The position numbers and the translations under genes are program-made. A stretch of 52,042 bases of DNA from Candidatus Taylorbacteria bacterium RIFCSPLOWO2_12_FULL_43_20 (GTDB taxonomy: Bacteria; Patescibacteriota; Minisyncoccia; Phycocordibacterales; HO2-43-120): assembly GCA_001821295.1 (NCBI GenBank), contig MHSK01000011.1, forward strand, positions 1-52,042. The letters are read 5' to 3'. The notes below the pieces were generated by a model. It searched no databases, was not told the DNA's origin, and worked only from the letters and a program-made list of their open reading frames with translations. This document shows, piece by piece, positions 15,507 to 51,764 of the stretch. Each line of letters begins with the position of its first letter. Positions within the stretch are counted from its first letter, which is position 1.

Positions 15507-15537
15507 CTGCCAACAGTCCACCTGTGGATATACTGTC

Positions 15538-15567: not shown

Positions 15568-15573
15568 TAAATA

Positions 15574-15795: not shown

Positions 15796-15802
15796 CCCGC
15801 TT

Positions 15803-17750: not shown

Positions 17751-17787
17751 GTTTAATAATTTTTTAATAATTTAATAATAAAAAATC

Positions 17788-18981
17788 ATGGCAGAAGCAT
17801 TTGATCGATCAAAACCGCATGTCAACGTCGGAACTATTGGCCACGTTGATCACGGCAAGACAACATTAACAGCGGCAATTCTCAGCGTTTTAAGTAGGTC
17901 GGGAAAGCAGGTTAAGCTGAAAGGAGTTGACCAGATAGACTCCGCGCCGGAAGAAAAAGCTCGAGGCATCACGATCTCTTTGTCGCACAACGAATACTCC
18001 AGTGACACAAGGCACTACGCTCACATTGACGCTCCGGGTCATGCCGACTATATAAAAAACATGATTACAGGCGCGGCTCAGATGGACGGAGCCGTTTTGG
18101 TGGTGGCGGCCACGGACGGGGTTATGCCGCAGACTCGCGAGCATATTCTTCTTGCCAAGCAGGTGGGAGTGCCTAAAATCGTGGTCTTTCTCAATAAATG
18201 TGATATGGTTGCCGAACAGGACTTGATAGACCTTGTGGAAGAAGAGGTTAGAGAATTGCTTGATAAGTATGAGTTTGACGGAAAAAACGCTCCGGTTATC
18301 AGGGGATCGGCTCTAAAGGCGCTTGAAGCGTCGGGAGTGGATGATGAATGGTCCAAAAAAGTTTTGGATCTCGTAAATACGCTGGACACCTACATTCCTA
18401 TACCGGTAAGAGAAACCGATAAGCCGTTTCTGATGCCTGTTGAAGATATATTTTCTATTGAAGGACGAGGAACGGTGGTAACGGGAAGAATTGAAAGAGG
18501 AATAGTCAAAGTGGGAGAAGATGTGGAAATAATAGGCATTAAACCGACGATCAAAACAACGGTTACCGGCATTGAAATGTTCAATAAATCTTTATCTGAG
18601 GGCATGGCGGGAGACAACGCCGGTATTCTTCTTAGAGGATCAAAGAAAGAAGATATTCACAGAGGACAAGTATTGGCAAAGCCGGGATCGGTTACTCCGC
18701 ACACGGATTTTGAAAGCGAGGTCTATGTTTTGAAAAAGGAAGAAGGGGGGAGGCATACACCGTTCTTTTCTGGTTACAAGCCGCAATTTTACATCAGGAC
18801 TACGGACGTTACCGGAGAAGTTACGCTGGTGGAAGGCACGGAAATGATTATGCCCGGAGATACGACAAAATTTACGGTTAAGCTGGTTGCGCCTGTAGCG
18901 CTTGAGGAGAAACAGAGATTTGCCATTCGCGAGGGTGGTAAAACAGTGGGCGCCGGAGTAGTGACGAAAATAACCAAATAG
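17788..18981 (+). CDS. tuf: Elongation factor Tu
   Basis: [39 protein letters not shown]; 397 aa. Confidence 0.97.
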
Positions 18982-18983
18982 AA

Positions 18984-19109
18984 TATGATTTACGCAGTCG
19001 GCGCATTTCTTCTATGCAAGCCCCGTTTGCTCCCGCAATGTATAAGCTACATTCTGGTCGCAATCCTCGCTTGCGCCTCGAACTGCATCCAACTGCGTAA
19101 GTCCTATAG
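18984..19109 (+). repeat. Family B element, copy B2
   Basis: Starts 2 nt after the tuf stop; ends ...AACTGCGTAAGTCCTATAG. Confidence 0.9.
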
Positions 19110-24321: not shown

Positions 24322-24343
24322 ACAAGTTTGCGTTATTGAGTAG

Positions 24344-24472
24344 TATATGACTTACGCAGTCGGCGCATTTCTTCGTTGCAAGCTCCGTTTGCTCCCGCAA
24401 TGTATAAGGATACATTTTGGTCGCAATCCTCGCTCGCGCCTCGAACTGCATCCAACTGCGTAAGCCCTATAG
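24344..24472 (+). repeat. Family B element, copy B3 (between rplP and rpmC)
   Basis: TATATGACTTACGCAGTCGGCGCATTTCTTCGTTGCAAGC...CAACTGCGTAAGCCCTATAG. Confidence 0.9.
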
Positions 24473-24495
24473 CATTAGGAATTACTTCCACAGCC

Positions 24496-25352: not shown

Positions 25353-25379
25353 GAAAAATAACACGACACCAATATACGA

Positions 25380-25420
25380 CTCCGACGCTTTGGTCGGAGC
25401 CCCGACCGAAGCGTCGGGGA
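25380..25420. repeat. Family D long hairpin (CCGACGCTTTGGTCGG-AGCC-CCGACCGAAGCGTCGG)
   Basis: Same hairpin as at 42836-42875 and 46782-46821. Lies between rplN and rplX. Confidence 0.9.
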
Positions 25421-25518
25421 TGAAGACGAATTACACTAATATATTGATGGATTTAAACAATCTACCCAATTCTTGTCATTCGTTTTAATTCGTAATCAGT
25501 GTCTAGGAAAAATCAAAC

Positions 25519-29146: not shown

Positions 29147-30418
29147 ATGTTTATTATGTTTGATAAGATTTCCTTTATTTTAAAAGACCATGTTTTGCGC
29201 AGAAAGCTGTTGTTTGTCTTCCTTGGGCTTGTTTTGTTCAGAGTGATGGCCGCGATTCCGATCCCCGGAGTGGATCCCGTACGCCTTGAAAGTTTTTTTG
29301 CCAATAATCAGTTTTTCGGGCTTTTGAATATTTTTTCCGGGTCCGGCTTGGCCACACTTTCAATAGTTATGCTTGGAGTCGGACCTTACATTACCGCTTC
29401 TATAATCATGCAGCTTTTGACCATGATGTCGTCAAAGCTTAAAGCTCTTTATCATGAAGAAGGTGAGGCCGGAAGGATGAGATTCACGCAATATTCTAGA
29501 AGGATAAGCGTCATTTTGGCGGCTATTCAAGCATATGGTTTTCTTATTCTTTTGGAGAGACAGGGTATCATAGACGCGCTAGCCCCCTTTGATCTAGTGA
29601 CTAATATTTTTGTGATAACCGGCGGTTCTGTTTTGCTGATGTGGCTCGGTGAATTGATCACTGAGTACGGCATAGGCAATGGAGTTTCCTTGATAATTTT
29701 CGGAGGAATCGTTGCCGGCTTGCCTCAGACTCTGAATAGATTGATATTTACCTTTGACCCCTCAAGAATACCGCTGTATGTCATGTCATTGGTGGTTGCA
29801 GTCGTTATCGTCTGGGCGGTGGTTGTAATAACCGAAGGTGAACGGCCGATACCGGTAACCTATGCGAAAAGAGTAAGGGGGTCCAAAATGTACGGAGGAG
29901 TGTCCACGTATCTGCCTTTGAGGGTGAATCAGGCCGGAGTTATTCCCATAATTTTCGCTCTTTCCATACTATTGTTTCCTCAAATGATTTTGAACTTTTT
30001 GGTAAATACCACCAATCCTCAAATAGTCAGTTTTGCCGAGCGCGGTCTGGCGGTACTTTCCAATTCATGGATTTACGGTATCGGATATTTTATACTGGTG
30101 TTTGTTTTTACCTATTTTTATACAGCTGTCACGTTTGATCCCCATACAATATCTACCAATCTGCAGAAAAACGGAGCGTTTATACCGGGTGTACGTCCAG
30201 GACAATCCACATCTAGTCATCTGGCCCGCGTCGTTACGCGCATAACGCTGGTGGGAGCCATATTTTTGGCTTTTATCGCCGTCTTGCCTCTCATCATGCA
30301 GGGCGTGACTGGAGATCCTTCTTTGGCAATAGGAGGAACCGCGCTTCTCATTGCCGTGTCGGTTGTTCTGGATTTCGCCAAAAAGATAGAAGGACAGGTG
30401 TCAATGAGAGAATACTAG
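29147..30418 (+). CDS. secY: Preprotein translocase subunit SecY
   Basis: 10-TM protein with typical SecY segments (IPIPGVD, GVGPYITASIIMQLL, LNQAGVIPIIFA). Confidence 0.95.
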   Translation: MFIMFDKISFILKDHVLRRKLLFVFLGLVLFRVMAAIPIPGVDPVRLESFFANNQFFGLLNIFSGSGLATLSIVMLGVGPYITASIIMQLLTMMSSKLKALYHEEGEAGRMRFTQYSRRISVILAAIQAYGFLILLERQGIIDALAPFDLVTNIFVITGGSVLLMWLGELITEYGIGNGVSLIIFGGIVAGLPQTLNRLIFTFDPSRIPLYVMSLVVAVVIVWAVVVITEGERPIPVTYAKRVRGSKMYGGVSTYLPLRVNQAGVIPIIFALSILLFPQMILNFLVNTTNPQIVSFAERGLAVLSNSWIYGIGYFILVFVFTYFYTAVTFDPHTISTNLQKNGAFIPGVRPGQSTSSHLARVVTRITLVGAIFLAFIAVLPLIMQGVTGDPSLAIGGTALLIAVSVVLDFAKKIEGQVSMREY

Positions 30419-30425: not shown

Positions 30426-31016
30426 ATGGAGCTTAAAACTGTTATATTCATGGGTCGGTCCGGTTGTGGTAAGGGTACGCAGGCGTCGCTTCTGGTAGAG
30501 TACTTGAGAATGAAAGACCAAGAGCACTTGACTCATTACCTTGAAACAGGCAAAGAATTCAGAAAGTTCATCACCACTCCGGGCTATTCCGCGGAAAACG
30601 CCAAGCGCATTTATGAGGAGGGCGGACTTATGCCGGAGTTTTTGCCCGTGTGGATCTGGTCTGAGTTTTTTATTAGGAATATTTCAGGCAAAGAGCACAT
30701 AATAATGGATGGCGTGGCAAGACGTTTTCGCGAAGCGGAAATTATGGATTCCGCGTTTGATTTCTACAAGAGGCCAAAGCCGACTGTAATTCTGATTGAT
30801 GTATCCAAGGAGTGGGCGTTTGATCGTCTCATGGCAAGGAAGCGCAGTGATGATAGCGAAGAAGATATCAGAACGCGCCTGGATTGGTTTGAGAAAGACG
30901 TGTCCAAATCTTTGAGTTTTTACAAAAGTGATCCTAAATATGATTTTATTGTGGTAAACGGTGAACAAACTATTGAAGAAGTGCACGGAGAAATTATTTC
31001 CAAATTTTCAAAATAG
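30426..31016 (+). CDS. adk: Adenylate kinase-like nucleoside monophosphate kinase
   Basis: P-loop GRSGCGKGTQ in the conserved position after secY. Divergent, with no zinc lid. Confidence 0.8.
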   Translation: MELKTVIFMGRSGCGKGTQASLLVEYLRMKDQEHLTHYLETGKEFRKFITTPGYSAENAKRIYEEGGLMPEFLPVWIWSEFFIRNISGKEHIIMDGVARRFREAEIMDSAFDFYKRPKPTVILIDVSKEWAFDRLMARKRSDDSEEDIRTRLDWFEKDVSKSLSFYKSDPKYDFIVVNGEQTIEEVHGEIISKFSK

Positions 31017-31043
31017 GATTTGAAACGGGTAGTGCTCAATGCA

Positions 31044-31811
31044 ATGAAAATTAAGTCAGAAAAAGACATAAAGATAATGAGAGAAGGCGGAAGAAGGCAT
31101 TCTGTTATTATGGATAAGATAGCGCGTCTAGTTTCCCCGGGTGTTCGTTCTAGTTATCTCAATGACATGGCTCTAAAATTGATTGAAGAAGGCGGCGATA
31201 AGCCGGCTTTTTTAAACTATAAGCCGTATGGAGCAAGCAGGCCTTACCCCGCGAGTCTTTGCGTGTCGGTCAACGACGAAATCGTTCATGGAATTCCAAA
31301 TGAAAAAGATAAGGTTTTGAAGGAGGGAGACATTGTCGGTTTGGATTGCGGGCTTATACACAAAGGGATGGTTACAGACATGGCTGTAACGGTGCCCGTC
31401 GGAAAGATAAGCCGGGAGGCATTACTCTTGATCCAAGCGGCGAAGTATGCTCTCACGAGAGGAATCAGCGCGGCGAAAGCCGGCAATACGGTTGGCGACA
31501 TTGGTTTTGAAATAATGTCATACATAAAGCCGTATGGATATGGAATAGTTAAAGAGCTTGCCGGCCACGGCGTCGGATATAAAGTGCATGAAGATCCTTA
31601 CGTTCCAAATTACGGAAAAAAAGGTGAAGGGCCGGAGCTTTTACCTGGCGCTGTTATCGCCATAGAGCCGATGTTGAATCTTGGAACGGCCCGGATCAAG
31701 CTGGATCCGGACGGCTACACGTACAGGACTGCAGACGGGAAAATAAGCGCGCACTTTGAGCACACTGTTCTCATAAGTAAAGAGGGGCCGGAGATTTTGA
31801 CTCAACATTAA
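31044..31811 (+). CDS. map: Type I methionine aminopeptidase
   Basis: Metal-ligand context DIVGLDCG...TDMA, HGVGYKVHEDP, AIEPM, FEHTVLI. ATG at 31044 preferred over TTG at 31020. Confidence 0.93.
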   Translation: MKIKSEKDIKIMREGGRRHSVIMDKIARLVSPGVRSSYLNDMALKLIEEGGDKPAFLNYKPYGASRPYPASLCVSVNDEIVHGIPNEKDKVLKEGDIVGLDCGLIHKGMVTDMAVTVPVGKISREALLLIQAAKYALTRGISAAKAGNTVGDIGFEIMSYIKPYGYGIVKELAGHGVGYKVHEDPYVPNYGKKGEGPELLPGAVIAIEPMLNLGTARIKLDPDGYTYRTADGKISAHFEHTVLISKEGPEILTQH

Positions 31812-31875: not shown

Positions 31876-34233
31876 ATGACGGAAAAAATTATAAAAAATT
31901 TGGACGAGCTGGAGATGCCCGAAGCGTCACATTCTTCTAAAAAAGAAGAGACAGGCGGCGATCAGGAAAAAAATGGAATGCGTCAAGCTGATATGCGGAT
32001 AAAGCGCGCTCTAAAACGCTTAATGGCAAGCAAGACGCTTAATGATCTTTTGGGCAGTAGCGTAGATATAGAAAAGATAACGGAAGGACTTGAGACAAAA
32101 ATTGAGATTGCAAGAGCTCAAAATGACGATGAGTTCTCGGCTTCGTGCCAAAATACGTTAGACGCATTCAAAGGTTTTATTAGAACCTCACTTACTTCAA
32201 AGGAAAAGGACGACCCACTGGGAGACAAAGCGGACATTATTGGAAGAATTCTGGAGCCGGGCATTGGGCGTGGTTCTAAAAAAGAAGCTGCTAAAAAGGA
32301 AGAGCAAAATCCGAACACAATATCTGACGAGCAAGCAATGGACGTGATAAGAGCCGTGGCGCATGAGCATCCGAGTGTGTTATCAGTCGGCGATATTGTT
32401 TCCGGTGAAGAAAACGATAAAAAAACAGAAACACGCGCACGGGATGAAAAAAAAGCGGAAAATAGGAGAACTGTTGGTTTACACATAAAAAATCTTAAAG
32501 GATTTGCCGACACTCCCTCAAAGTCAAGGCAGGTAAAAGTGGATAAGTACATAAACATGACTTTATCAGACGCGACTAATAACGTTGATAAAAATCCAGA
32601 ATATTTAGATATGCTGGAAGAAGCATATATTAAAGCTGGATATTTGAAACGCGCAACAGGTGAGAAAGTTGGCCGAGAGGAGTCATCTACAGAGGCAAAG
32701 CAAAAAAATGAACAAACAAAAAAGGAAGAAAAACCCAGAGCTAAAAAAGCCGAGGGAACAGATGTTTCAGACGTGGAAACTGTGCGCGGTTTGTCTGTTG
32801 AGTCCGATATTGGTGGTGAAAATGTGGCGCGTGAAAGTGATTCAACAGAAAGAAAACAAGAAGCGCCCCGTTTAGGTATTCAATCCGATACCGACGGTGT
32901 TAGTGTGGGAGAAGCAGCCAAACCGGAAAATGAGCCGCGGGGAGAGGGGGATATTGGATCGAAAGTAGAGCCGGGTGTTCCCGAAGGGAGCCAGGCGTCA
33001 ATAGGACAAGCGCCTTCACCAATAGAAACAAATGCGGATGCGCCAAAAGCGCCGGAAGTGCCGAAAGAGCCGGAAACTGAAAAAGCCGAGGGCACAAACA
33101 TCGGAGAAACGCCCGCCATTAACTGGAGATTTAAAGAAATTAAAGACGTGCCGGAAGGCGACCTCACTGTAGCCGAAATGATGGACCATGGTGATTTTCC
33201 TCTGTTTCTTGCCCAGTATTCCAACGGAGAGCACCTCATAGATGCTGACGACGTAGAAGGTGTGAGGGAAATTTTTGACGCGTATGTCTACGGAGGAACA
33301 GTTGTTAACGGTCTGAAAAGGACGGTACAGCAGTATTACGAAAGATCAGCTGGAGTCAAGTTCAGCCCAGAGGAGCTTGCTGTCATTGATGAATACATAA
33401 TGGCTGAAGCCAGAGATAATCCGGGCAGAATAAAAGAACTGGGCCAAGAAGTTGTAATTTTTGAATCGTTGCAAAAAGAAAATAACGAGCTTGAGCAGGA
33501 AATAAGAAAAATGGGACGAAATGCTGTCACTGAACGGCTGAAATATGAAATCGCGGCGCTGAAAGCCGAACAGTATGATTTGCAACAATTAGAAAGCGGG
33601 GACGCGGCGAACTCAGGCATGTATCATATGAAAGAACTTTTTCTCTTTTGGAAAAAGGATACGCCGGGGAAGAGGAATAGGAGGCGGCTCAAGGAGCTTG
33701 AAGAAAAAATATCCGAAATGGAAGGCACTTTGGCCGGGCTGGAACAAATCAAGGATTCAAGGAAGTCTTTGTTGGAGATTATTGAGCCTCTTGGCAAACT
33801 AAACGAACTTGCGCAAGAAAAAGCAAAAGAACAGCTGGAGAGAATGATGGCCTCTGGTGATCCGGAAAAAACATATGCTTATTTTGAACGTGTGTCCGAT
33901 GCGGAAGAGGACGATGACATAGAGATGCTCCGCAAAATAGACAAGGATGAAGTGAGATCAGCGCTTGATGAAAAAATTGAGGCCAAGGTTGCCAGAGATA
34001 TCAAGAAAACACTTGATGGGTTTAGGTTTGGAGCGAAAATAGGCAATGTTGAAAATTTGAAGAAATCTTTGAGGAAGCATCTTGAAAGAAGCGGCATGGG
34101 ATCAAAAAAGGGAGTAGAAGCCCAGGAAAACGTGCGCCGCATTTTGCTTGAAGTCTCAAGAGAGCTGGGAGGTGGAGCGGAAGCTAAAGCGAAGATGATG
34201 ATGGTAACAGCCATTTTTAATGAATTAAAGTAG
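31876..34233 (+). CDS. Hypothetical 785-aa hyper-charged (E/K-rich) coiled-coil protein
   Basis: Intact long ORF with no TM and no signal peptide by eye. Internal repeat K(A/K)EGT(D/N). C-terminal half is predicted helical. No family recognised. Confidence 0.6.
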   Translation: MTEKIIKNLDELEMPEASHSSKKEETGGDQEKNGMRQADMRIKRALKRLMASKTLNDLLGSSVDIEKITEGLETKIEIARAQNDDEFSASCQNTLDAFKGFIRTSLTSKEKDDPLGDKADIIGRILEPGIGRGSKKEAAKKEEQNPNTISDEQAMDVIRAVAHEHPSVLSVGDIVSGEENDKKTETRARDEKKAENRRTVGLHIKNLKGFADTPSKSRQVKVDKYINMTLSDATNNVDKNPEYLDMLEEAYIKAGYLKRATGEKVGREESSTEAKQKNEQTKKEEKPRAKKAEGTDVSDVETVRGLSVESDIGGENVARESDSTERKQEAPRLGIQSDTDGVSVGEAAKPENEPRGEGDIGSKVEPGVPEGSQASIGQAPSPIETNADAPKAPEVPKEPETEKAEGTNIGETPAINWRFKEIKDVPEGDLTVAEMMDHGDFPLFLAQYSNGEHLIDADDVEGVREIFDAYVYGGTVVNGLKRTVQQYYERSAGVKFSPEELAVIDEYIMAEARDNPGRIKELGQEVVIFESLQKENNELEQEIRKMGRNAVTERLKYEIAALKAEQYDLQQLESGDAANSGMYHMKELFLFWKKDTPGKRNRRRLKELEEKISEMEGTLAGLEQIKDSRKSLLEIIEPLGKLNELAQEKAKEQLERMMASGDPEKTYAYFERVSDAEEDDDIEMLRKIDKDEVRSALDEKIEAKVARDIKKTLDGFRFGAKIGNVENLKKSLRKHLERSGMGSKKGVEAQENVRRILLEVSRELGGGAEAKAKMMMVTAIFNELK

Positions 34234-34251
34234 GAGCTCTAACTAACACAT

Positions 34252-34488
34252 ATGAAAGACATCAACGCAAAAAAAATAGAAAAGCTTTTAAAAGAAGAGA
34301 GATATGATGAAGCGCGGTCGCTCCTTGCCGATTTTTTCAGTCAGGAGCTCACGAAGGAAGACCGCGCTTCGTTATATCTTGATTATGCTCTGCTTCACCT
34401 CAAGGTTATGAATCGCATAGCCGCGCGTTATAATAAGCAACTTAAAACCATAAGAAAAAATCTTTCCGAGCTTCCAGAAAATGCTTAG
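34252..34488 (+). CDS. Hypothetical 78-aa helical protein
   Basis: ORF starting 18 nt after the preceding gene. No recognised family. Confidence 0.45.
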   Translation: MKDINAKKIEKLLKEERYDEARSLLADFFSQELTKEDRASLYLDYALLHLKVMNRIAARYNKQLKTIRKNLSELPENA

Positions 34489-34502
34489 GGCTGTTCACAA
34501 TC

Positions 34503-34646
34503 GTAACCGCTCACACCTTGAAGGGTGTCATTCCCGCGAAGGCGGGAATCTAGACCGCATTTGAACCTGGATTCCCGTCTTCGCGGGAATGACAGAAGGA
34601 GAAAAATGTTACAATTAGCGGGTTACTCGGCCTTGTGAGCGGTTAA
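34503..34646. repeat. Composite nested palindrome containing two family C hairpins
   Basis: Outer arms GTAACCGCTCACA / TGTGAGCGGTTAA enclose GTCATTCCCGCGAAGGCGGGAAT (34527-34549) and ATTCCCGTCTTCGCGGGAATGAC (34571-34593). Confidence 0.85.
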
Positions 34647-34715
34647 ATTGTTTTTTATTGATAATATATTGCGGTTAGAGTGTAAACTGACTCCAGTGAG
34701 TTTTGAAGATAAATT

Positions 34716-37475
34716 ATGAACGAGACCGGATTTTCAAAGATAGACAATAAATTTAGCTCTCCTGAAGAAGAGTTGGATTTTTTGCGCGCGGAAGTTTCCA
34801 GGAAAGAATCGGAGTTAAATCGGCAAAGCGAGACACCGAGCCGCGACAAGATAATAGCCGAAAGTCTGGACAGGTACAAAAAAACCGATGCCAAGGACAT
34901 TCTTCATGAGTCCTACGCGATGGGAAGCGAGGATAAAAACGAGCTCAGAAAAAAGCTGGATCTTTCCCCCGAACCCCACGATGATAAAATTAGCGAATTC
35001 GCGTCAATCTTAGAAGCTCACGGAATAAAAAACGCCCTTTCCGCCTTGGAAGAGCTGGACAATCCTCATCTCATGGATGATTTTGACAGGTTTCTGGTCC
35101 AATATGTCAAGCAGGATTTTGAAGTCAAAGGCGTGTCAAAAAAAGATCTTTTCAGCCGCGCTCTCCAGATGACCCTGTACGAGATAGCGTTGCCTGAAAA
35201 AACCAGCGAAGAACACCCGAAGACTTTGAAAGAACTGGTTTCGTCAATGGAGCAGTTTTATGCCGGCATGATGGCTGTGGGAGAAAAAAGCGATAAAGGA
35301 CCGAGCTATTTCACGCTGGAGCTCGCTGTGGAAAATCATAGCGATGAATTCATATTTTATTCAGCTGTTCCGGATTCAAGGAGAGATCTTTTTGAAAAGC
35401 AGATAATGTCAATTTTTCCAGACGCAAGAGTGACGGAAAAGAAAGATGACTATAATATTTTTGACGCGGAGGGAGTTGCCGTCGGTTCATACGCCGTGTC
35501 GGGCAACAACCCGATTTTTAGTTTGAAAACGTACGAACAATTTGATTACGATCCTCTCAATGTTCTTTTGAACAGCTTTTCCAAAATAGACAAAGACGGG
35601 GAAGGAGCCGCGGTGCAAATTGTCTTCAAACCGGTCGGAGATATGTACATGGAAAAATACAAGTACGCTCTGGAACAAATACAGAAAGGCGTAAAAGTCA
35701 AAGATGCGATAGATATTCCGGAGAGTCTGGCCGGTCACCTGTTTAAGTTCGCTAAGGAGGTGGCGGGCGATATGAAGAAGGATAAGGAAAAAGAAACGGA
35801 TATCAAGGATAAGCACGTGGATGAGATAGCGGTTGAGGATATAACTCAGAAAATTTCGAGCCCTGTTGCCGTCGCCAACATACGAATAATGGCTTCTTCA
35901 GCCAACGAAGCATCGGCGCTGGCTATTCTGGAGGATGTCCACGCCGCTTTCAATCAGTTTGAAAATAGCCACGGCAATAAGCTAATCTTTAAAACTTTAA
36001 AAAAATCAAAACTGAGGAGACTGGCAAAGGAGTTTTCTTTCCGCTTGTACTCTTCGGACGAGAAAATACCTTTGAGCTTGAAAGAAATTACGACGATCAT
36101 GCATCTCCCCTCCACTGTAATCAAGTCTGCTCCTCAGCTCAAGATTTCAAAGGCGTCTACCGCGCCGGCACCAATGGATCTTAAAGAAGAGGGCATACTC
36201 ATGGGAGTCAACAGAAACCGTAACTCCGAAAGGAAAATTTACATGGCCGAGGAAGACCGTCTGCGGCATTTCTATACCATCGGACAAACCGGAACCGGCA
36301 AGACAACATTGTTGAAAAATATGATCGCTCAGGACATAGCCAACGGAGAAGGCGTGTGCATGATAGATCCTCACGGGTCAGACATAGACGATGTGCTTGC
36401 TTCCGTGCCTCCGGAGAGATATGACGACGTGGTATATTTTGACCCGAGTTACACGGCTCGGCCGACCGCTTTAAATATGCTTGAGTATGATACGCGTTTT
36501 CCGGAACAGAAAACCTTCGTCGTGAATGAAATGCTTTCTATATTCAATAAATTGTTTGATATGAAAACAGCCGGCGGGCCGATGTTTGAACAATATTTCA
36601 GAAACGCGGTGCTTTTGGTAATGGAGGATCCGACAACCGGAAACACGCTTCTTGATGTGTCAAAAGTGCTGGCTGACAAAAAATTCAGAGAGATGAAGCT
36701 GGAGAGGTCGTCAAACCCGATTGTTTCGCAATTTTGGAAAGAGGTGGCGGAAAAAGCTGGGGGTGAATCCGCCTTGGCGAATATTGTGCCTTACATCACC
36801 TCAAAATTTGACGTGTTTTTATCCAACGATATTATGCGTCCTATCATCGCAAGCGAGAAATCCAGCTTCAATTTCAGGGAAATAATGGACAATAAAAAAA
36901 TATTGCTGGTAAATCTCGCAAAAGGCCGGCTTGGTGAAATCAACTCAAATCTTCTAGGTCTCATACTTGTGGGAAAAATCCTGATGTCCGCTTTGTCGCG
37001 CGTTGATTCTTTCGGCAAAAATTTGCCTCCTTTTTATTTGTATATTGACGAGTTTCAAAATGTAACAACAAGCTCCATATCTACAATATTATCCGAGGCG
37101 AGGAAATACAAACTGGCGCTGGTTATTGCTCATCAGTTTATCGCTCAGCTAGAAGATAATATAAAGGATTCGGTTTTCGGAAACGTCGGTTCCATAGCTT
37201 CATTCAGAGTCGGAGCAGAAGACGCCGAATACTTGGAAAAACAATTTGCTCCGGTTTTCGCGGCCAAGGATCTTATGAACATAGATAATAGGTCTTTTTA
37301 CCTGAAAATGCTTTCAGGGGGCAAAACAGTCAAGCCGTTTAACGTGGAAACCATCGCGCCGGCTTATGGAGAAAGAAATAGCGTGGAAAAAATGAAAGAA
37401 TTGTCCTACCTGCGATACGGGAGGGATCGGGAAAGAGTGGAAGCGGAAATCATGAGCAAGTATAATAAGTCGTGA
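34716..37475 (+). CDS. Soluble FtsK/HerA-superfamily ATPase, VirD4/TraD (type IV coupling protein)-like C-terminal half with a ~480-aa N-terminal domain of unknown function
   Basis: Walker A GQTGTGKTT (~nt 36290), DPHGS shortly after it, Walker B FYLYIDEFQN (~nt 37030), AHQ motif LVIAHQFIAQL. No TM helices seen in the N-terminus. Confidence 0.75.
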   Translation: MNETGFSKIDNKFSSPEEELDFLRAEVSRKESELNRQSETPSRDKIIAESLDRYKKTDAKDILHESYAMGSEDKNELRKKLDLSPEPHDDKISEFASILEAHGIKNALSALEELDNPHLMDDFDRFLVQYVKQDFEVKGVSKKDLFSRALQMTLYEIALPEKTSEEHPKTLKELVSSMEQFYAGMMAVGEKSDKGPSYFTLELAVENHSDEFIFYSAVPDSRRDLFEKQIMSIFPDARVTEKKDDYNIFDAEGVAVGSYAVSGNNPIFSLKTYEQFDYDPLNVLLNSFSKIDKDGEGAAVQIVFKPVGDMYMEKYKYALEQIQKGVKVKDAIDIPESLAGHLFKFAKEVAGDMKKDKEKETDIKDKHVDEIAVEDITQKISSPVAVANIRIMASSANEASALAILEDVHAAFNQFENSHGNKLIFKTLKKSKLRRLAKEFSFRLYSSDEKIPLSLKEITTIMHLPSTVIKSAPQLKISKASTAPAPMDLKEEGILMGVNRNRNSERKIYMAEEDRLRHFYTIGQTGTGKTTLLKNMIAQDIANGEGVCMIDPHGSDIDDVLASVPPERYDDVVYFDPSYTARPTALNMLEYDTRFPEQKTFVVNEMLSIFNKLFDMKTAGGPMFEQYFRNAVLLVMEDPTTGNTLLDVSKVLADKKFREMKLERSSNPIVSQFWKEVAEKAGGESALANIVPYITSKFDVFLSNDIMRPIIASEKSSFNFREIMDNKKILLVNLAKGRLGEINSNLLGLILVGKILMSALSRVDSFGKNLPPFYLYIDEFQNVTTSSISTILSEARKYKLALVIAHQFIAQLEDNIKDSVFGNVGSIASFRVGAEDAEYLEKQFAPVFAAKDLMNIDNRSFYLKMLSGGKTVKPFNVETIAPAYGERNSVEKMKELSYLRYGRDRERVEAEIMSKYNKS

Positions 37476-37582
37476 TCCTTTTTTTTGCTTGCTCTGGAGC
37501 AGTGTCGCGGTATATAATTAATGACCAAACGTAATTATCAATATCTTCTCAAAGCATTGCTTTGGGCCGTTAATATATAAAC

Positions 37583-37771
37583 ATGCCTGAAAAATTAAAA
37601 ATTGAATGGTCTGGAGATGAGGAACAGCCGCGAATGGAGGAAACTAGACGGTGGATCGGCAAAATGGCTGACGAAAACAAGAGAGAAATTAATGAAAAAG
37701 GATACGCTAGATATATAAAACTTATGCCGGAACTGGATGAGGCGCTGGAAGAGTCGCTTAAGCAAAATTAA
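37583..37771 (+). CDS. Hypothetical 62-aa acidic protein
   Basis: ORF only; highly charged. Confidence 0.35.
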   Translation: MPEKLKIEWSGDEEQPRMEETRRWIGKMADENKREINEKGYARYIKLMPELDEALEESLKQN

Positions 37772-37775
37772 ATAT

Positions 37776-38069
37776 ATGGACCATCCTTTAAAACAAAAAA
37801 TCGCTCCGCGGCTTAATCTCAACGGTTTTAGCGATACGGAAAAAGAAGAGATAATTACGATGTTGGAGAATATAGCCAAGGAAAAAATTTTCATAGCCAT
37901 TTTGGACGAACTTTCGCATGACGAAAAATCAGAGCTGGAGAAAATGAGCGAAGGGGAATACGCAGATAAGCTCAGCGCCTTTCTCGCTCCGCATTTTGAC
38001 AAATTCAGGTCTATCATAGATAAAAGGACTGAAGAGGTTGTGGGAGAATTTAACGCTTTAAGAGTGTAA
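37776..38069 (+). CDS. Hypothetical 97-aa acidic helical protein
   Basis: Starts at the ATG at 37776 (MDHPLKQ...). The pattern EEIITMLENIAKEKIFIAILDELSHDEKSELEKM recalls small helical proteins common in CPR genomes; this is from memory and not verified. Confidence 0.45.
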   Translation: MDHPLKQKIAPRLNLNGFSDTEKEEIITMLENIAKEKIFIAILDELSHDEKSELEKMSEGEYADKLSAFLAPHFDKFRSIIDKRTEEVVGEFNALRV

Positions 38070-38112: not shown

Positions 38113-38718
38113 ATGACACATCTTAAAAAAGAGAGGACGCTAGTGGTTATCAAGCCGGACGGTATTCAAAGGACGCTTGTGGGTGAGATTATACAGCGCT
38201 ATGAACGGATTGGACTGAAACTTATCGCCATTAAGATGCTCGTACCCTCCGAGGATCATGTGGACAAGCATTACAATCTTGACCCTGAGTGGAAGAAAAA
38301 TGTGGGTGAGAAATCAATCAAAGGGTATATAGACAAAGGTCTTGAGCCGCCCTCACAAGATCCAATGGTTATAGGGGATCAAGTTATAAGTGTTCTGAAA
38401 AAATATCTTAGCTCCGGACCGGTCATAGCGATGGTGTGGCAAGGCGCTCACGCGGTTAAAATTGTGAGGAAAATTACGGGAGGTACGGAGCCGCTTTCAT
38501 CGGATGTCGGCACGATTCGGGGGGACTATGTTTTAGATTCTTATCAAATGTCCGATAAGGACGGCAGGGCAATACGCAATCTGATCCATGCCTCAGGATC
38601 TGCAAAAGAAGCAGACGATGAGATCAAGCATTGGTTTGTTGAAGAAGAATTGCTAGATTACAATCTGGTGCAAGACAAAATCCTTTACGATGTAAATCTA
38701 GACGGATTGTTGGAATAG
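38113..38718 (+). CDS. ndk: Nucleoside diphosphate kinase, long form (201 aa)
   Basis: ERTLVVIKPDGIQRTLVGEIIQRYERIGLKLIAIKM, GTIRGDY, and NLIHAS holding the active-site His. A ~40-aa insertion relative to the ~145-aa classical form. Confidence 0.9.
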   Translation: MTHLKKERTLVVIKPDGIQRTLVGEIIQRYERIGLKLIAIKMLVPSEDHVDKHYNLDPEWKKNVGEKSIKGYIDKGLEPPSQDPMVIGDQVISVLKKYLSSGPVIAMVWQGAHAVKIVRKITGGTEPLSSDVGTIRGDYVLDSYQMSDKDGRAIRNLIHASGSAKEADDEIKHWFVEEELLDYNLVQDKILYDVNLDGLLE

Positions 38719-38720
38719 TT

Positions 38721-38847
38721 TAGGAATTACGCAGTCGGCGCATTTCTTCTCTGCAAGCTCCGTTTGCTCCCGCAATGTATAAGGATACATTTTGGTCGCA
38801 ATCCTCGCTTGCGCCTCGAACTGCATCCGACTGCGTAAGTCCTATAG
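38721..38847 (+). repeat. Family B element, copy B4
   Basis: Starts 2 nt after the ndk stop; ends ...GACTGCGTAAGTCCTATAG. Confidence 0.9.
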
Positions 38848-38853
38848 CTGTAT

Positions 38854-39539: not shown

Positions 39540-39560
39540 CACCGTTACTTATGACATTGG

Positions 39561-39688
39561 ATTACTAAACTCGTCGAAGGCAGGGCTTTTGCGGAACATT
39601 GCGCAAGCCGACGGGCGAGCATAGGGATTTTTTAGCAAAAAAATACCCGTGTTCCGCAAAAGCCCTGCCGAGAAAAGAGTTTCGTAAT
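39561..39688 (-). repeat. Family A 128-nt element, copy A3 (inverted orientation)
   Basis: Reverse complement of A1/A2/A4 with a few substitutions. Confidence 0.95.
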
Positions 39689-39715
39689 CCACAATTATGA
39701 ATTAAACAAGATATT

Positions 39716-41105: not shown

Positions 41106-41453
41106 TTACTGATTCACTTTTTTATATATTCTGGAGAAATATTCCGGTTGATCTTCGGCGAGGGATGCCAATATTTTGCGGTCAATAAGAACGTTCTTCT
41201 TTTTGAGCGCGCCCATAAACTTACTGTAAGACATGCCTTCTTTGGCCAAAGCGGCGCTAATCTTAACATTCCACAATCTTCTGAAGTCACCTTTTTTGTC
41301 TCGTCTATGAGCAAAGGCGTAAGTGCCGGCGTGAAAAATGGCTTCTTGGGCTTGTTTCTCCTTTTTACTTCTGCCGAAGCGGTAACCTTTTACCTTCCTC
41401 AGTGTATTTCTTCTGGTTTTGAGAGCGTTAACTCCTTTCTTTACTCTTGTCAT
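41106..41453 (-). CDS. rplT: 50S ribosomal protein L20
   Basis: MTRVKKGVNALKTRRNTLRKVKGYRFGRSK...FRRLWNVKISAA signature. Confidence 0.95.
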   Translation of the reverse strand: MTRVKKGVNALKTRRNTLRKVKGYRFGRSKKEKQAQEAIFHAGTYAFAHRRDKKGDFRRLWNVKISAALAKEGMSYSKFMGALKKKNVLIDRKILASLAEDQPEYFSRIYKKVNQ

Positions 41454-41467
41454 ATTTATTACTTTGA

Positions 41468-41595
41468 ATTACGAAACTCTTTTCTCGGCAGGGCTTTTGC
41501 GGAACACGGGTATTTTTTTGCTAAAAAATCCCTATGCTCGCCCGTCGGCTTGCGCAATGTTCCGCAAAAGCCCTGCCTTCGACGAGTTTCGTAAT
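41468..41595 (+). repeat. Family A 128-nt element, copy A4 (between rpmI and rplT)
   Basis: Appears identical to A2 by eye. Confidence 0.95.
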
Positions 41596-41667
41596 TCATG
41601 ATTATTAAAAATTAAAATCAGATGGGTATTATTACTATTGCGCGGGTTAGATAAGTTTCGCCATAGG

Positions 41668-41853: not shown

Positions 41854-41953
41854 GCGGTTGGAATTATGCGAAGATGGCGCTGGAATAGCGAAATACGTTT
41901 TTATTCTCCATAGGACTTAGACGTGTTAGTTTATTCGAATCATTCCTCAGTCT

Positions 41954-42024
41954 GTCATTCCCGCGAATGCGGGAATCCAGGGTCTTATCTGCACACTCTG
42001 GATTCCCGCATTCGCGGGAATGAC
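41954..42024. repeat. Family C double palindrome (27-bp perfect arms, 17-nt spacer) between infC and rpmI
   Basis: GTCATTCCCGCGAATGCGGGAATCCAG ... CTGGATTCCCGCATTCGCGGGAATGAC. Confidence 0.9.
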
Positions 42025-42074
42025 ATCAAACGCTTCATTCCTATTTAATTGATAATTAGATTCTGAACAGGCTC

Positions 42075-42666: not shown

Positions 42667-42898
42667 GGCACCGCAGGGCGTTCCCCTCTGCCCCTCTTTA
42701 GAGGGGAAGTCCTCGTTCTTACGAGGGATGGGGTGTCTTCTCTCTTCTTCCTTTTCTCCTTTTTGAATTTACAATTTTTTCGGATTTCGTGCTTCGTGCT
42801 TATATAAGGATGGGGTATTCCCCATTCGTATCTATCCCCGACGCTTCGGTCGGGGCTCCGACCGAAGCGTCGGAGTCGTTAAGTGCTATCTACTATAA
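42667..42898 (-). repeat. Family E mosaic element, copy E1 (~230 nt), includes the family D hairpin at 42836-42875
   Basis: Its reverse complement aligns with 46759-47034 apart from a ~36-nt indel. The gene-proximal end lies 82 nt upstream of the infC start. Confidence 0.9.
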
Positions 42899-42939
42899 CA
42901 TAGCTGACAAGATATTTCAACTAATTTTTGTGCAGTTGT

Positions 42940-45651: not shown

Positions 45652-45791
45652 TGTATAGAAAATGCCCTGCTCCGCTCCTAATCGGAGCTACGCAGGACAC
45701 TGCTTCGCGTTATTTCATGAAGCAAAATGATTTCTATAAAACAGCAGTGCAGTGCTTGCACTGCGTAGCTCGCGACTAGCGAGCGAAGCAG

Positions 45792-46198
45792 TGGAGATGG
45801 GCGGAATCGAACCGCCGTGCAATTGAATCTCGCGCGCACTTCTACAAAGTTTAGTTTGCTTTCTTTCGCGTGAGCGAATTTAAATCACATGGCTATAAAC
45901 AAACCAAATACCCTGTGATCGGTCCTCAGTTAATTTCAAAATCACATCAAGGCCCTGTGATTTCTATTCCGAAATTATAACACCTACTGCCCGCGTCTCG
46001 GACGTTCGCGGGTAAGGCGCCGCTTAGGCCGAAGCGTAAGCGAAAGCAAAGTCGTTTGCTCCAAAATATGGAGAAGCGACGGATTTTGCTTTTGCGACTA
46101 AGTTATTTACACTTAGTGTTTCTGTCAGATTAAAGAGTTAACAGTGCTCTACTTTGCGTATGCGCGAGGAGCTCAACTGTCTATGCCGGAGCATCCCC
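45792..46198 (-). ncRNA. ssrA: tmRNA (transfer-messenger RNA)
   Basis: 3' end GGCGG-TTCGATT-CCGCC-CATCTCCA forms the T-arm and acceptor strand. 5' GGGGATG pairs with CATCTCC, including the G3:U wobble. Putative tag ORF GCA AAC GAC TTT GCT TTC GCT TAC GCT TCG GCC TAA (ANDFAFAYASA, 46024-46059) has its stop inside hairpin CGCTTA...TAAGCG. CCA is not encoded. Confidence 0.85.
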
Positions 46199-46642
46199 AT
46201 TTTTTTTCAAGGTCCTTCTCATTTCACGTTCCGTGTCTCTCTTTTTCAAATCTTCCCGTTTGTCGTAAAGTTTCTTACCTCTTACGACGGCCAAACGTAC
46301 CTTAATCTTACGCTCTTTATTATACATCAAAAGAGGAATTATTGTCAAACCCTTCTTTTTCTCATATCCCGCTAGTATCGCCATTTCCTTTTTCGTGACG
46401 AGAAGGCGTCTATTCCTCCTTGGCTCATAATCTTTCGGAGTGTTTTTTTCCTGATAGGGAGAGATTAACGCGTTTAGAAGGAACGTCTCGCCGCCTCGCA
46501 CTGTCACGTGCGATCCGATCAGTGATCCTTGTCCCTCTCTAAGCGATTTGACCTCCAAGCCACGGAGCTCTATTCCGGCGTCAAATTCGTGTATTGTCTC
46601 GTAATTAAAGCGGGCTTTTTTGTTGTCTAAAATGACTTGCAT
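46181..46642 (-). CDS. smpB: SsrA-binding protein SmpB
   Basis: LDNKKARFNYETIHEFDAGIELRGLEVKSLR signature and a basic C-terminal tail. Confidence 0.93.
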   Translation of the reverse strand: MQVILDNKKARFNYETIHEFDAGIELRGLEVKSLREGQGSLIGSHVTVRGGETFLLNALISPYQEKNTPKDYEPRRNRRLLVTKKEMAILAGYEKKKGLTIIPLLMYNKERKIKVRLAVVRGKKLYDKREDLKKRDTEREMRRTLKKNGDAPA

Positions 46643-46758: not shown

Positions 46759-47034
46759 TCATAGTAGATACCGCTTAACGACTCCGACGCTTCGGTCGGG
46801 GCTCCGACCGAAGCGTCGGGGATAGATACGAATGGGGAACACCCCATCCTTATATAAGCACGAAGCACCAAATAACAAATTACAAAAAATTGTAAATTCA
46901 AAAAGGAGAAAAGGAAGAAGAGAGAAGACACCCCATCCCTCGTACCCCTACGCTCGAAGCGAGCTTCGGCGGCACACAGTAAGAACGAGGACTTCCCCTC
47001 TAAAGAGGGGCAGAGGGGAACGTCCTGCGGTGCC
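46759..47034 (+). repeat. Family E mosaic element, copy E2 (~275 nt), includes the family D hairpin at 46782-46821
   Basis: Aligns with the reverse complement of 42667-42898. The gene-proximal end lies 81 nt upstream of the ftsH start. Confidence 0.9.
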
Positions 47035-49068: not shown

Positions 49069-49159
49069 CTATAGGACTTACGCGTCTATTGTCATTCCCG
49101 CCTTCGCGGGAATGACAATAGAGAATGGTTTGGAAAAAGCCAGTATGCGTAAGTTCTAG
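49069..49159. repeat. Mosaic element: family B-type termini enclosing a family C hairpin
   Basis: CTATAGGACTTACGCG ... TGCGTAAGTTCTAG flank CTATTGTCATTCCCGCCTTCGCGGGAATGACAATAG. Lies between the convergent ftsH and trmB-like genes. Confidence 0.8.
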
Positions 49160-51008: not shown

Positions 51009-51086
51009 GCGCGAAATAGGGATTTGCACTGAAGTATGTGTTTTGGCTCATTCAAACCATCCCCATCTGTTAGTCCAGCGCTCTCT

Positions 51087-51112
51087 GTCATTCCCGCTTT
51101 CGCGGGAATGAC
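51087..51112. repeat. Family C hairpin (GTCATTCCCGC-TTTC-GCGGGAATGAC)
   Basis: Lies between the convergent kinase and HAD genes. The trailing ATCAAACGC is shared with the copy at 42002-42024. Confidence 0.9.
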
Positions 51113-51131
51113 ATCAAACGCACAAAACTTA

Positions 51132-51764
51132 TTAAATCATCTTGGGTAGTTCAGAGATATCTGTGATTGTTGGAATATGCTCATGCTCTATGAACCGATC
51201 ATGAGCTGTTTTCGGCCCTTTTACATATATTATTTTAAAATCGGGGAATTTTTTTAGAATAGTTTCAATTTCATCGGCGTGGTCATCAATAAAATACGTA
51301 ACGCCTTTGAACGCAACATCTCTGAGCGCTTCCTCTTTTTTCTCATCGCAGACATAAATATGTTTGCCGAAAAATTTTTCTATGCCGGACTGGCGTATTT
51401 TGAATCTCTGGTAATAATCTATTCCTTTGGTCAGAATCATGAGTACATATCCTTTTTTCTTTAATATGGTAAGGGTCTCTTTCACCGGACCTTTGAGATA
51501 AGAAGACAAGTCATTTTTTAAAAACGCGCTGATATCCTCCTTTGAAATTTTGTATCTCAGTTTCTCCGACTCCTCGCATAGTTTCAAGAAATCGGGATTA
51601 TCCTTTGAATCCGCTCTTTGTTTCCTGATAATATCATCGTAGATCTTTTCCGGTATCGTCCTATCAGTAAAAAATTGATTCATTGAAGAGCTGAAAGCCG
51701 TTGTATTGAAAAGAGTGTGATCAAAGTCAAATATTAATGTTTTTGCCGTTATATTCTTTATCAT
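51132..51764 (-). CDS. HAD-superfamily hydrolase
   Basis: Motif I LIFDFDHTLFNT (DxDxT) and a late FIDDH acidic motif. Confidence 0.75.
   Translation of the reverse strand: MIKNITAKTLIFDFDHTLFNTTAFSSSMNQFFTDRTIPEKIYDDIIRKQRADSKDNPDFLKLCEESEKLRYKISKEDISAFLKNDLSSYLKGPVKETLTILKKKGYVLMILTKGIDYYQRFKIRQSGIEKFFGKHIYVCDEKKEEALRDVAFKGVTYFIDDHADEIETILKKFPDFKIIYVKGPKTAHDRFIEHEHIPTITDISELPKMI

Follow-up and report, generated by a model that had tools for sequence, protein, structure and literature searches.

The closest known relatives of the gene studied here are the type IV coupling proteins (T4CPs; VirD4, TrwB, TraD, DotL and Cagbeta) and VirB4/TrwK, two groups of ATPases of type IV secretion systems (T4SSs). 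In the Dot/Icm system, the coupling complex contains DotL together with the small adaptors IcmS, IcmW and LvgA. For the coupling protein TraJ of pIP501, membrane anchoring by the small membrane protein TraI has been proposed, as summarized in a 2025 review (PMC12857230). For Patescibacteria, Quinonero-Coronel et al. (2025; PMC12102498) analysed 3035 genomes and found VirB4 in 2417 of them and 5713 VirD4-like T4CP homologues in 2918, about two per genome, with just 148 located near virB4. The existence of patescibacterial orphan T4CP homologues far from virB4 is already on record. We analysed such a gene on a DNA stretch of 52,042 nucleotides (nt), hereafter the window, which is contig MHSK01000011.1 of Candidatus Taylorbacteria bacterium RIFCSPLOWO2_12_FULL_43_20. 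The gene encodes an ATPase of 919 amino acids (aa) and is located between map and ndk, downstream of secY and adk and accompanied by genes for a highly charged 785-aa protein and a 78-aa helical protein. Our results show that the ATPase combines a T4CP-type C-terminal domain with an N-terminal DUF8128 region, that it is a conserved core gene of Paceibacteria, and that the two accompanying genes are linked to it in a subset of the loci.

Domain organization and relatives of the ATPase

The C-terminal half of the 919-aa protein is well supported as a T4CP ATPase of the VirD4/TraD/TrwB type. Three Pfam models score above their gathering thresholds on aa ~489-880, namely TrwB_AAD_bind (29.7 bits, cutoff 20.5), DUF87 (26.4 bits, cutoff 23.2) and TraG-D_C (23.1 bits, cutoff 22). 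The top NCBIfam models are those of the TraD, TrbC and VirD4-like families, all with scores far below their equivalog cutoffs (e.g., 50.7 vs 366), and the VirD4-like CD1115 family aligns with aa 509-836. The full-length AlphaFold (AF2) model (predicted local distance difference test score, pLDDT, 74.7) shows a RecA-like core into which an all-alpha stretch (aa ~597-712) is inserted between the Walker A and Walker B motifs. Foldseek searches with this model returned full-length TrwK/VirB4 as the top matches, colinear over ~900 columns, as well as TrwB (template modelling score ~0.6), DotL, Cagbeta, HerA and the C-terminal domain (CTD) of VirB4. When the PDB was searched by sequence, both the single protein and a profile gave just marginal matches to the TrwB P-loop; matches to D-Ala-D-Ala carboxypeptidases (E 0.015) were dismissed as noise. 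We did not find any transmembrane helix in the protein: the highest 19-residue Kyte-Doolittle mean is 1.63, and this peak at aa 742 corresponds to a core helix of the ATPase fold. An earlier reading of the window, made from the sequence only and without database searches, had proposed a soluble, orphan VirD4/TraD-like ATPase, and this proposal is borne out, for a protein that is an orphan in its local context, by the Pfam, NCBIfam and Foldseek results and by the absence of a transmembrane helix. The three motifs named in that reading are also present: across 79 homologous sequences, there is no variation in GQTGTGKT (Walker A, aa 523-530), in D778/E779 of YIDEFQN (Walker B, aa 776-782) or in AHQ (aa 805-807).

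Other families of related ATPases were considered as well. The FtsK_SpoIIIE motor model (PF01580) matches the P-loop only, with 15.9 bits against a cutoff of 24, and with the lack of a transmembrane helix the protein does not qualify as an FtsK/SpoIIIE motor. Models for VirB4-type ATPases (AAA_10, CagE_TrbE_VirB, TIGR00929) are likewise restricted to the P-loop region at 17-20 bits, and an AAA_10 match as such was not obtained. Some HerA-type traits are present, since DUF87 is above threshold and HerA structures match the nucleotide-binding domain (NBD) of the ATPase. But the N-terminal domain is VirB4-like rather than HerA-like, and no NurA, Sir2 or DUF4297 gene is found next to the ATPase gene, so that the protein does not classify as HerA.

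The sequence-only reading had also noted a large extra N-terminal domain, which our analysis confirms, but had regarded this soluble domain of ~480 aa as unassignable. It can in fact be assigned: precomputed Pfam annotations place PF26449 (DUF8128) on the N-terminal region of a database protein (P0001) that is 100% identical to the window ATPase, and on all 120 listed homologues. Modelled alone (pLDDT 84.8), the region is predicted to consist of a helical extension (aa 16-132) followed by an alpha/beta domain (aa ~150-461). In a Foldseek search of this model against the PDB, TrwK/VirB4 was the sole family below E 1e-3 (11 chains, best E 1.7e-5), with the next family at E ~1e-2. Because no CTD-only VirB4 structure, TrwB or HerA was found among these matches, the match is to the N-terminal domain of VirB4. 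The corresponding search of BFVD retrieved gp156 of phage G (4.5e-17), proteins of phages Slash and JL (~2e-15) and the VirB4-like gp155 (1.8e-6). A local Pfam scan of the N-terminal domain at E <= 10, with a copy of the database that does not contain DUF8128, returned nothing meaningful, and the likeness to VirB4 is thus one at the level of the fold. Taken together, the structural models indicate that the N-terminal domain is DUF8128 with a predicted VirB4-N-terminal-domain-like fold, preceded by a family-specific helical extension. In the literature searched, we did not find any mention of DUF8128.

The extension (aa 1-140) is specific to the Paceibacteria family and contains invariant PEEEL..LR, PE.HD and PH..DDF motifs. 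A shorter family form of 800-840 aa lacks the first ~140 residues, and shorter relatives as well as the phage and plasmid homologues begin at about aa 140-225. A search with the N-terminal 490 aa alone yielded 990 clusters at 50% identity. Since complete members found in this way are 800-1120 aa long, the N-terminal domain is essentially always fused to the ATPase domain. The named distant members from this search were again from Minisyncoccia/Parcubacteria.

More distant homologues were found on phages and plasmids. PHROG 5156 (phrog_5156), a family of unknown function, matches aa 151-915 of the ATPase with an E value of 1.1e-85. The protein gp156 of Bacillus phage G (825 aa) is colinear with aa 176-917 (pairwise E 3e-38), and neighbours of gp156 are gp153, a VirB6-like membrane protein (TrbL_4), and gp155, which is VirB4-like (P-loop_TraG, AAA_10). 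On the Embleya sp. plasmid NZ_CP108778, the 812-aa homologue WP_331738717 (tblastn E 2e-44 over aa 225-902) is encoded in a textbook monoderm T4SS cluster with the gene order TrbL_4-like (VirB6-like), PrgI (VirB3), VirB4-like ATPase, homologue, Replic_Relax and SLT/NlpC-P60 hydrolase. In pCLJ of C. botulinum, a gp156-like protein of 800 aa (WP_012720238) follows a weakly TrbC/VirB2-like open reading frame (ORF). These proteins are 23-26% identical to the window ATPase and lack its first ~140-220 aa. A CTD profile built from the Paceibacteria family gave 202 (Embleya), 125 and 81 bits on the proteins in the T4CP slot, vs 9-10 bits only on the VirB4-slot proteins of the same clusters, and the N-terminal profile of the family gave 44 bits on gp156 and 41 bits on the pCLJ protein. 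The homologues differ in possible anchoring segments: the Embleya protein has an N-terminal transmembrane-like segment and gp156 a hydrophobic loop where the window ATPase has a charged loop (aa 338-365), while the pCLJ protein has neither. By these sequence comparisons, the window ATPase is an orthologue of a subtype of T4CP-slot ATPases with a VirB4-like N-terminal domain, and not of the ATPases in the VirB4 slot. The sequence-only reading had suggested an undescribed translocation or remodelling machine; this no longer holds for the ATPase in view of its orthology to the coupling-protein-slot ATPase of monoderm T4SS clusters. As a separate observation, the T4SS-like cassette gp153, gp155 and gp156 of the giant phage G (L089, 87772-93336) is of unknown function, and structurally related proteins are found in Bacillus phages Slash and JL.

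Conservation, genomic context and partner genes

Database searches yielded more than 2174 homologues of the 919-aa protein. The best 120 of these cover 98-100% of its length with 61-74% identity, originate from Paceibacterota, Parcubacteria, Taylorbacteria and similar sources, and are listed under names such as "TraM recognition domain-containing", "DUF87 domain-containing" and "type IV secretion system DNA-binding domain-containing" protein. A scan with one genome per species detected the ATPase in at least 593 species genomes. A scan of IMG/VR did not return any close relatives. For the analysis of the genomic context, we assembled 83 non-redundant loci, consisting of the window and 82 fetched loci (designated by L numbers). 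Across these 82 loci, the median identity to the window ATPase is 58%, compared to 63% for SecY, 57% for Map, 65% for Ndk and 43% for Adk from the same loci. The C-terminal half is nearly invariant across homologues. The 919-aa protein is a full-length, highly conserved member of a Paceibacteria/Parcubacteria-wide family and a vertically inherited core gene under strong purifying selection. One Nomurabacteria metagenome-assembled genome contains two DUF8128 ATPase genes (L014, CALRBL010000059.1; L053, CALRBL010000034.1), which belong to different ATPase clusters and just one of which adjoins ndk. This may reflect either true paralogy or a mixed bin.

The ATPase gene is typically found at the same chromosomal position. 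Of the 49 loci whose upstream sequence extends for at least 8 kb, 29 have map upstream of the ATPase gene; of the 55 loci with 3 kb or more on the downstream side, 32 carry ndk no more than 4.5 kb downstream. The genes are usually arranged as rplO-secY-adk-map-[0-7 kb]-ATPase-[0-4 kb]-ndk-DUF2238-betaCASP, with rplT-rpmI-infC coming next on the opposite strand. The spacer that separates map from the ATPase gene measures 15 nt to 7 kb and the one before ndk 9 nt to 4 kb, and their content is highly variable. In 15 loci, the gap to map is no more than 150 nt (15-150 nt), and the gap to ndk is often below 130 nt. Since the map-ATPase-ndk order recurs across loci, the arrangement after map is normal for the class. 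The sequence-only reading had described a cluster replacing the alpha operon after map: the genes are indeed located there, but as the standard class-wide arrangement and not as a local replacement. No VirB channel, relaxase or pilus gene is adjacent to the ATPase gene, as that reading had stated, and this applies to the window and to ~85 related loci. Nor did we find any recurrent integrase, nuclease, recombinase or partition gene near the ATPase across the loci examined.

In whole clades of the ATPase, the gene is located outside the map-ndk context. Its neighbours are then unrelated housekeeping genes, encoding an AlkD-like enzyme, YqeY, RmuC, a penicillin-binding protein, a LOG-family protein or pyruvate kinase. 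In L040 (ATPase cluster 9), the gene has an AlkD-like DNA alkylation repair gene on one side and the genes for YqeY and RmuC on the other, and within cluster 9 (L040, L052, L058, L062-L065, L068) a family of ~346 aa, the size of RmuC, is encoded downstream of the ATPase in seven loci.

Two further families accompany the ATPase in part of the loci. The 785-aa protein was predicted from the sequence to be highly charged, and with 36% charged residues and a net charge of -32 it is. Iterative searches with hidden Markov models within the loci showed that only its C-terminal ~375-380 aa are conserved. This charged core defines a family with members in 18 non-redundant loci (20 ORFs including two duplicate loci), all of them no more than four genes away from the ATPase. 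The usual length of the members is 412-516 aa, with occasional proteins of up to 1645 aa, and they share the motifs ALxxxGFxxFL..YPD, ENP and GxxxGxEAxEF. The N-terminal ~405 aa of the window protein are common to L001 only, are absent from the ~420-aa members and do not match any Pfam family; this extension is probably disordered or helical. The charged proteins are acidic overall (median net charge -15), but terminate in an amphipathic helix that is basic: the median for their last 25 aa is +3.5, with a net charge of at least +4 in 9 of 18 proteins vs 4.8% of all windows. This would be compatible with a recognition signal at the C-terminus. Searches of a large database did not extend the family: aa 401-785 of the window protein gave no match at E <= 1e-3, and a 16-sequence family profile retrieved four proteins, three of them already known, with charged low-complexity words swamping the search.

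The second family consists of helical proteins of ~96 aa, detected in 13 non-redundant loci, whose genes directly follow that of the charged protein wherever the partner was detected. The 78-aa ORF of the window belongs to this family, but is ~16-18 aa shorter at its C-terminus than the homologues of 94-98 aa. It ends against a double hairpin resembling a repetitive extragenic palindromic (REP) element, downstream of which no remnant of the missing C-terminus was found. Intergenic hairpins of this REP/MITE-like family (MITE, miniature inverted-repeat transposable element; TGTCATTCCCGCnTTCGCGGGAATGACA) are also present elsewhere in the window, at ~695-754, 41943-42052 (at 41953 and 41995), 49071-49117 and 51081-51140.

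The charged and 96-aa families are the sole enriched neighbours of the ATPase after the housekeeping anchors. The gene pair adjoins the ATPase in 18 of the 83 loci, which fall into five ATPase clusters (2, 4, 14, 16, 17) at the cut used. It is located upstream of the ATPase in the window, L001, L016, L021, L028, L034, L039, L046, L049 and L050, and downstream in L003, L012, L017, L022 and L078, keeping its internal order while switching sides. In L012, L022 and L078, the pair stays with the ATPase although map and ndk are absent. A reciprocal metagenome scan anchored on the 96-aa family found the ATPase immediately downstream in four of four loci, with both partners paired; this is a thin test, since it was run with a four-sequence subset of the family and the four loci are closely related members of one subgroup. 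Because the linkage survives rearrangement, on either side of the ATPase and outside of the map-ndk context, we regard the three genes as a module. Several loci run map-ATPase-ndk with nothing between. Because map directly precedes the ATPase in at least 15 loci, the pair must be encoded elsewhere or be dispensable in those genomes.

The remaining two ORFs between the ATPase gene and ndk behave differently. For the 62-aa ORF, we did not find any homologue in 84 loci, including L001, the ATPase of which is 72% identical, nor any family match, and it is doubtful that it is a real gene. The 110-aa ORF shows 61% identity to L001 in a tblastx comparison from position 37782 on and also matches L079, and is conserved in these loci only. 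Since conservation begins at 37782, the true start is probably the ATG at 37776, resulting in a protein of 97 aa without overlap with the 62-aa ORF. This protein is small, helical and weakly DUF5663-like: the L001 orthologue carries a precomputed PF18908 annotation, but reached only E 0.008 in a local scan. Pfam searches of the small ORFs at E <= 10 returned nothing meaningful. Their description as acidic in the sequence-only reading was overstated, given net charges of +3, -4 and -1 for the three small ORFs. Of the neighbours suspected to be co-conserved with the ATPase, the charged core and the first small ORF stood (18 of 83 loci), but the 62-aa ORF did not, nor did the 110-aa ORF beyond close relatives.

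Possible functions of the ATPase and its partners

Our preferred interpretation, in which we place about even confidence, is that the ATPase could serve as a soluble coupling motor for a distantly encoded patescibacterial T4SS, with the charged and the 96-aa proteins as a pair of adaptor or substrate plus chaperone. By analogy to TrwB and VirB4, it would form a ring-shaped, ATP-driven translocase without a membrane anchor of its own. Its VirB4-like N-terminal domain may dock the ATPase onto membrane partners, as the N-terminal domain of VirB4 does onto VirB3 and VirB8; pIP501, with TraJ and its proposed anchor TraI, would provide a precedent for separate anchoring. The motor would recruit substrates for, and energize, a chromosomal T4SS whose virB4, virB6, virB3 and virB8 genes would lie elsewhere in the genome, and the acidic ~420-aa protein (785 aa in the window) and its ~96-aa partner (78 aa) would be the adaptor or substrate and the chaperone handled by it. 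A role in T4SS coupling is favoured because the sole interpretable relatives occupy the T4CP slot, because a docking-type domain is retained, and because T4CP genes are often encoded away from virB4.

A number of observations weigh against this interpretation. No T4SS component, relaxase or pilus gene is located within 10 kb of the ATPase in ~85 loci, so that the link to a T4SS is drawn from distant homologues and the literature. According to the patescibacterial survey, T4CP homologues occur in more genomes (2918) than VirB4 (2417), a Southlakia t4cp homologue is non-essential while the T4SS is essential, and the authors state that exaptation "cannot be ruled out" (PMC12102498). Conservation at the level of SecY within a ribosomal cluster is unusual for coupling proteins. 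In addition, most loci lack the partner pair in the immediate neighbourhood of the ATPase, the homology of the pair is weak (mean column identity of 16-22%), and no structural or family match supports a role of the pair (Pfam at E <= 10 and other family scans).

The main alternative is that the ATPase would be an exapted housekeeping translocase, i.e., a T4CP-derived motor independent of any T4SS that performs a core cytoplasmic task. Such a task could be the remodelling of proteins or the translocation of DNA, the latter in chromosome segregation, recombination, repair or uptake of DNA. Expression of the motor would be tied to the ribosomal/secY-adk-map cluster, and regulation would be the role of the charged protein and its partner. 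The ATPase is as conserved as SecY and Map, tightly placed in the ribosomal cluster, devoid of a transmembrane anchor and structurally similar to HerA DNA translocases, and in one clade without the synteny it is encoded beside an AlkD-like DNA repair enzyme and RmuC. The wider distribution of T4CP homologues compared to VirB4 and the non-essential Southlakia gene point in the same direction, and exaptation is raised by the authors themselves (PMC12102498). Against this, the nearest relatives that can be characterized occupy the T4CP slot, where their neighbours are VirB4, VirB6, VirB3 and a relaxase-like gene. Retention of the VirB4-like N-terminal domain points to docking onto membrane partners of the T4SS type, and no nuclease, recombinase or partition gene is consistently adjacent. 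Moreover, gene order is broadly conserved in the candidate phyla radiation (CPR), so that the ribosomal context is weak evidence for function. We regard exaptation as less likely than the coupling role. The link to DNA uptake proposed in the sequence-only reading did not gain support from any of our analyses.

The neighbouring genes could also be adjacent by chance, the 785-, 78-, 62- and 110-aa ORFs being lineage-specific fillers in a variable map-ndk spacer. Spacer lengths and contents indeed vary greatly, map stands directly before the ATPase in at least 15 loci, no homologue was found for the 62-aa ORF, matches to the 110-aa ORF are restricted to L001 and L079, and members of the charged family show little similarity to each other, with a bias in composition. 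Against this, the pair recurs in five ATPase clusters in a fixed order on either side of the ATPase, accompanies it in the three loci that lack map and ndk, comprises the sole enriched families other than the anchors, and led back to the ATPase in all four loci of the reciprocal scan. Chance adjacency is unlikely as an account of the cluster; it applies to the 62-aa ORF and perhaps to the 110-aa ORF, but not to the pair. An explanation that we consider very improbable is a defence system, i.e., an anti-phage ATPase of the HerA/MADS type with variable partners, or a decayed integrative conjugative element. It could account for a PADLOC match to mad8 (E 8.9e-12, aa 517-819), a weak HerA match, the phrog_5156 match, the homologues in phage G and other Bacillus phages, and the fast evolution of the partner proteins. 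However, the PADLOC matches are limited to the generic P-loop domain, and the gene occupies a single locus, is inherited vertically and occurs across the class; its conservation resembles that of SecY, and its housekeeping context is fixed. The GC content matches that of the surroundings, no integrase, relaxase, nuclease or Sir2/DUF4297-type effector gene is found nearby, and close relatives are missing from IMG/VR. The defence-system reading of the mad8 and HerA matches was rejected on the basis of distribution and context.

More speculatively, and with considerable doubt on our side, Paceibacteria may have turned a conjugation-type motor into an essential, constitutive housekeeping machine that is co-transcribed with secY-adk-map. 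With its VirB4-like docking domain, this machine would pass either DNA, host-derived or its own, or a hypervariable acidic protein that has a basic tail at the C-terminus and is accompanied by the 96-aa chaperone, through the patescibacterial T4SS or another channel. If this were true, the locus would be the centre at which substrates are selected for the epibiotic lifestyle of the largest CPR class. Epibiotic growth of the one genetically tractable patescibacterium requires T4SS genes. For the coupling-motor interpretation preferred here, the locus would be an entry point to T4SS substrate selection in that class, with three handles: a coupling-type ATPase conserved at the level of SecY, an assignable VirB4-like docking domain, and a co-migrating pair of candidate adaptor or substrate genes. 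DUF8128 is the mark of a T4CP subtype that had gone unremarked; the subtype has an N-terminal domain like that of VirB4, is shared with actinobacterial plasmids, clostridial plasmids and Bacillus phages, and bears on the divergence of VirB4 and VirD4. A motor independent of a T4SS would instead clearly exemplify the exaptation of a conjugation ATPase to a core function of the cell.

Features of the window and comparison with known systems

The ORF map of the locus agrees exactly with the six co-oriented ORFs claimed after map in the sequence-only reading. Scans for promoters and terminators of the locus were at background level only. Downstream of ndk follow genes for a DUF2238-like membrane protein and a beta-CASP/RMMBL nuclease, and then rplT-rpmI-infC on the other strand; the GC content of the locus is in line with these surroundings.

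Table 1. Genes, domains and motifs of the secY-ndk region. Coordinates are positions in the 52,042-nt window.
Feature	Position	Strand	Basis or remark
secY	29147-30418	+	upstream of map
adk	30426-31016	+	between secY and map
map, conserved upstream anchor	31020-31811	+	Pfam context
785-aa ORF (charged protein)	31876-34233	+	ORF map
785-aa protein, N-terminal ~405 aa, charged lineage-specific extension	31876-33087	+	aligns solely with closest relative L001
785-aa protein, C-terminal core, ~375-380 aa	33088-34233	+	fast-evolving acidic helical ~420-aa family
78-aa helical ORF, ~96-aa family member, C-terminally shortened	34252-34488	+	homologue alignment
Intergenic REP/MITE-like element, two GTCATTCCCGC...GCGGGAATGAC hairpins	34489-34715	.	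between 78-aa gene and ATPase gene
919-aa ATPase ORF	34716-37475	+	ORF map
ATPase aa 1-140, helical N-terminal extension	34716-35135	+	AF2 helices aa 16-132
ATPase aa 141-465, DUF8128 alpha/beta domain	35136-36110	+	precomputed Pfam PF26449; Foldseek
ATPase aa 489-919, T4CP-type NBD	36180-37475	+	Pfam, Foldseek, family profile
Walker A	36282-36305	+	in ATPase NBD
Walker B	37041-37061	+	in ATPase NBD
AHQ	37128-37136	+	in ATPase NBD
62-aa ORF, doubtful gene	37583-37771	+	no homologue
110-aa ORF	37737-38069	+	ORF map
97-aa product of the 110-aa ORF from internal ATG (probable start)	37776-38069	+	start of conserved part
ndk, conserved downstream anchor	38113-38718	+	Pfam NDK

The window contains several other repeat families. 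An intergenic repeat of ~150 nt is present in four copies with 87-99% identity (5032-5188, 14266-14416, 39557-39711 in inverted orientation, and 41445-41615), two of which flank the beta-CASP/rplT region in inverted orientation; these repeats create spurious ORFs with the common peptide NSFLGRAFAEHGYFFAKKSLCSPVGLRNVPQKPCLRRV. A second repeat of ~136 nt also occurs in four copies (17619-17753, 18977-19109, 24338-24473, 38713-38848; 80-97% identical), which are intergenic in the ribosomal gene cluster, with copies flanking tuf and one directly after ndk. A third family is built around the palindrome CCGACGCTTCGGTCGGGGCTCCGACCGAAGCGTCGG (25365-25431, 42736-42921, 46761-46944), and inverted 160-nt copies of it flank the region of tmRNA and smpB. 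The tmRNA (tag VNNLVAKAKSVASPYFGANDFAFAYASA) adjoins smpB and, as delimited by ARAGORN, shares a few bases with the 3' end of that gene (45791-46198 and 46181-46642, - strand). The str operon is interrupted as well (14298-16393), between fusA (12104-14242) and tuf (17788-18981), by two ORFs, one of 402 aa without Pfam match and one of 213 aa that carries the N-terminal methylation motif of type IV pilins. Just upstream of rpsL, an 1828-aa predicted surface protein (5245-10731) is encoded that contains Laminin_G_3, InlB B-repeat, CHB_HEX_C, PKD-like, fn3 and peptidoglycan-binding domains.

The locus can be compared with several described systems. With the patescibacterial orphan T4CPs, it shares that VirD4-like genes are mostly located far from virB4 and that exaptation is possible (PMC12102498); the passages of that study covered here do not mention DUF8128 or a VirB4-like N-terminal domain, the map-ATPase-ndk synteny or the gene pair. 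In the literature searched overall, we did not find the VirB4-like nature of DUF8128, the subtype shared with the T4SS cassettes of actinobacterial plasmids and a Bacillus phage, the SecY-like conservation of the ATPase, the map-ATPase-ndk synteny or the co-migrating gene pair. TraJ/TraI of pIP501 and the Dot/Icm system resemble the locus in that a coupling ATPase depends on separate small proteins for anchoring or substrate selection; the likeness of TraI and IcmS/IcmW to the partner proteins of the window is by functional analogy only.

Like the T4CPs VirD4, TrwB, TraD, DotL and Cagbeta, the window ATPase has a P-loop NBD with an all-alpha insertion, passes three Pfam thresholds and matches TrwB with a template modelling score of ~0.6. 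Unlike these, it does not have an N-terminal transmembrane anchor, carries an additional N-terminal region of ~465 aa and scores far below every curated NCBIfam cutoff for TraD/VirD4. Its gene is chromosomal and part of a ribosomal cluster, without T4SS or relaxase neighbours and with housekeeping-like conservation. With VirB4/TrwK, the ATPase shares the two-domain plan, in which a RecA-like ATPase comes after a soluble N-terminal domain of the alpha/beta type, but its ATPase domain is of the T4CP type by sequence. The ATPases of Embleya, phage G (gp156), pCLJ and PHROG 5156 are colinear with it over both the DUF8128 core and the T4CP-type NBD; they differ in being encoded inside T4SS-like cassettes on mobile elements.

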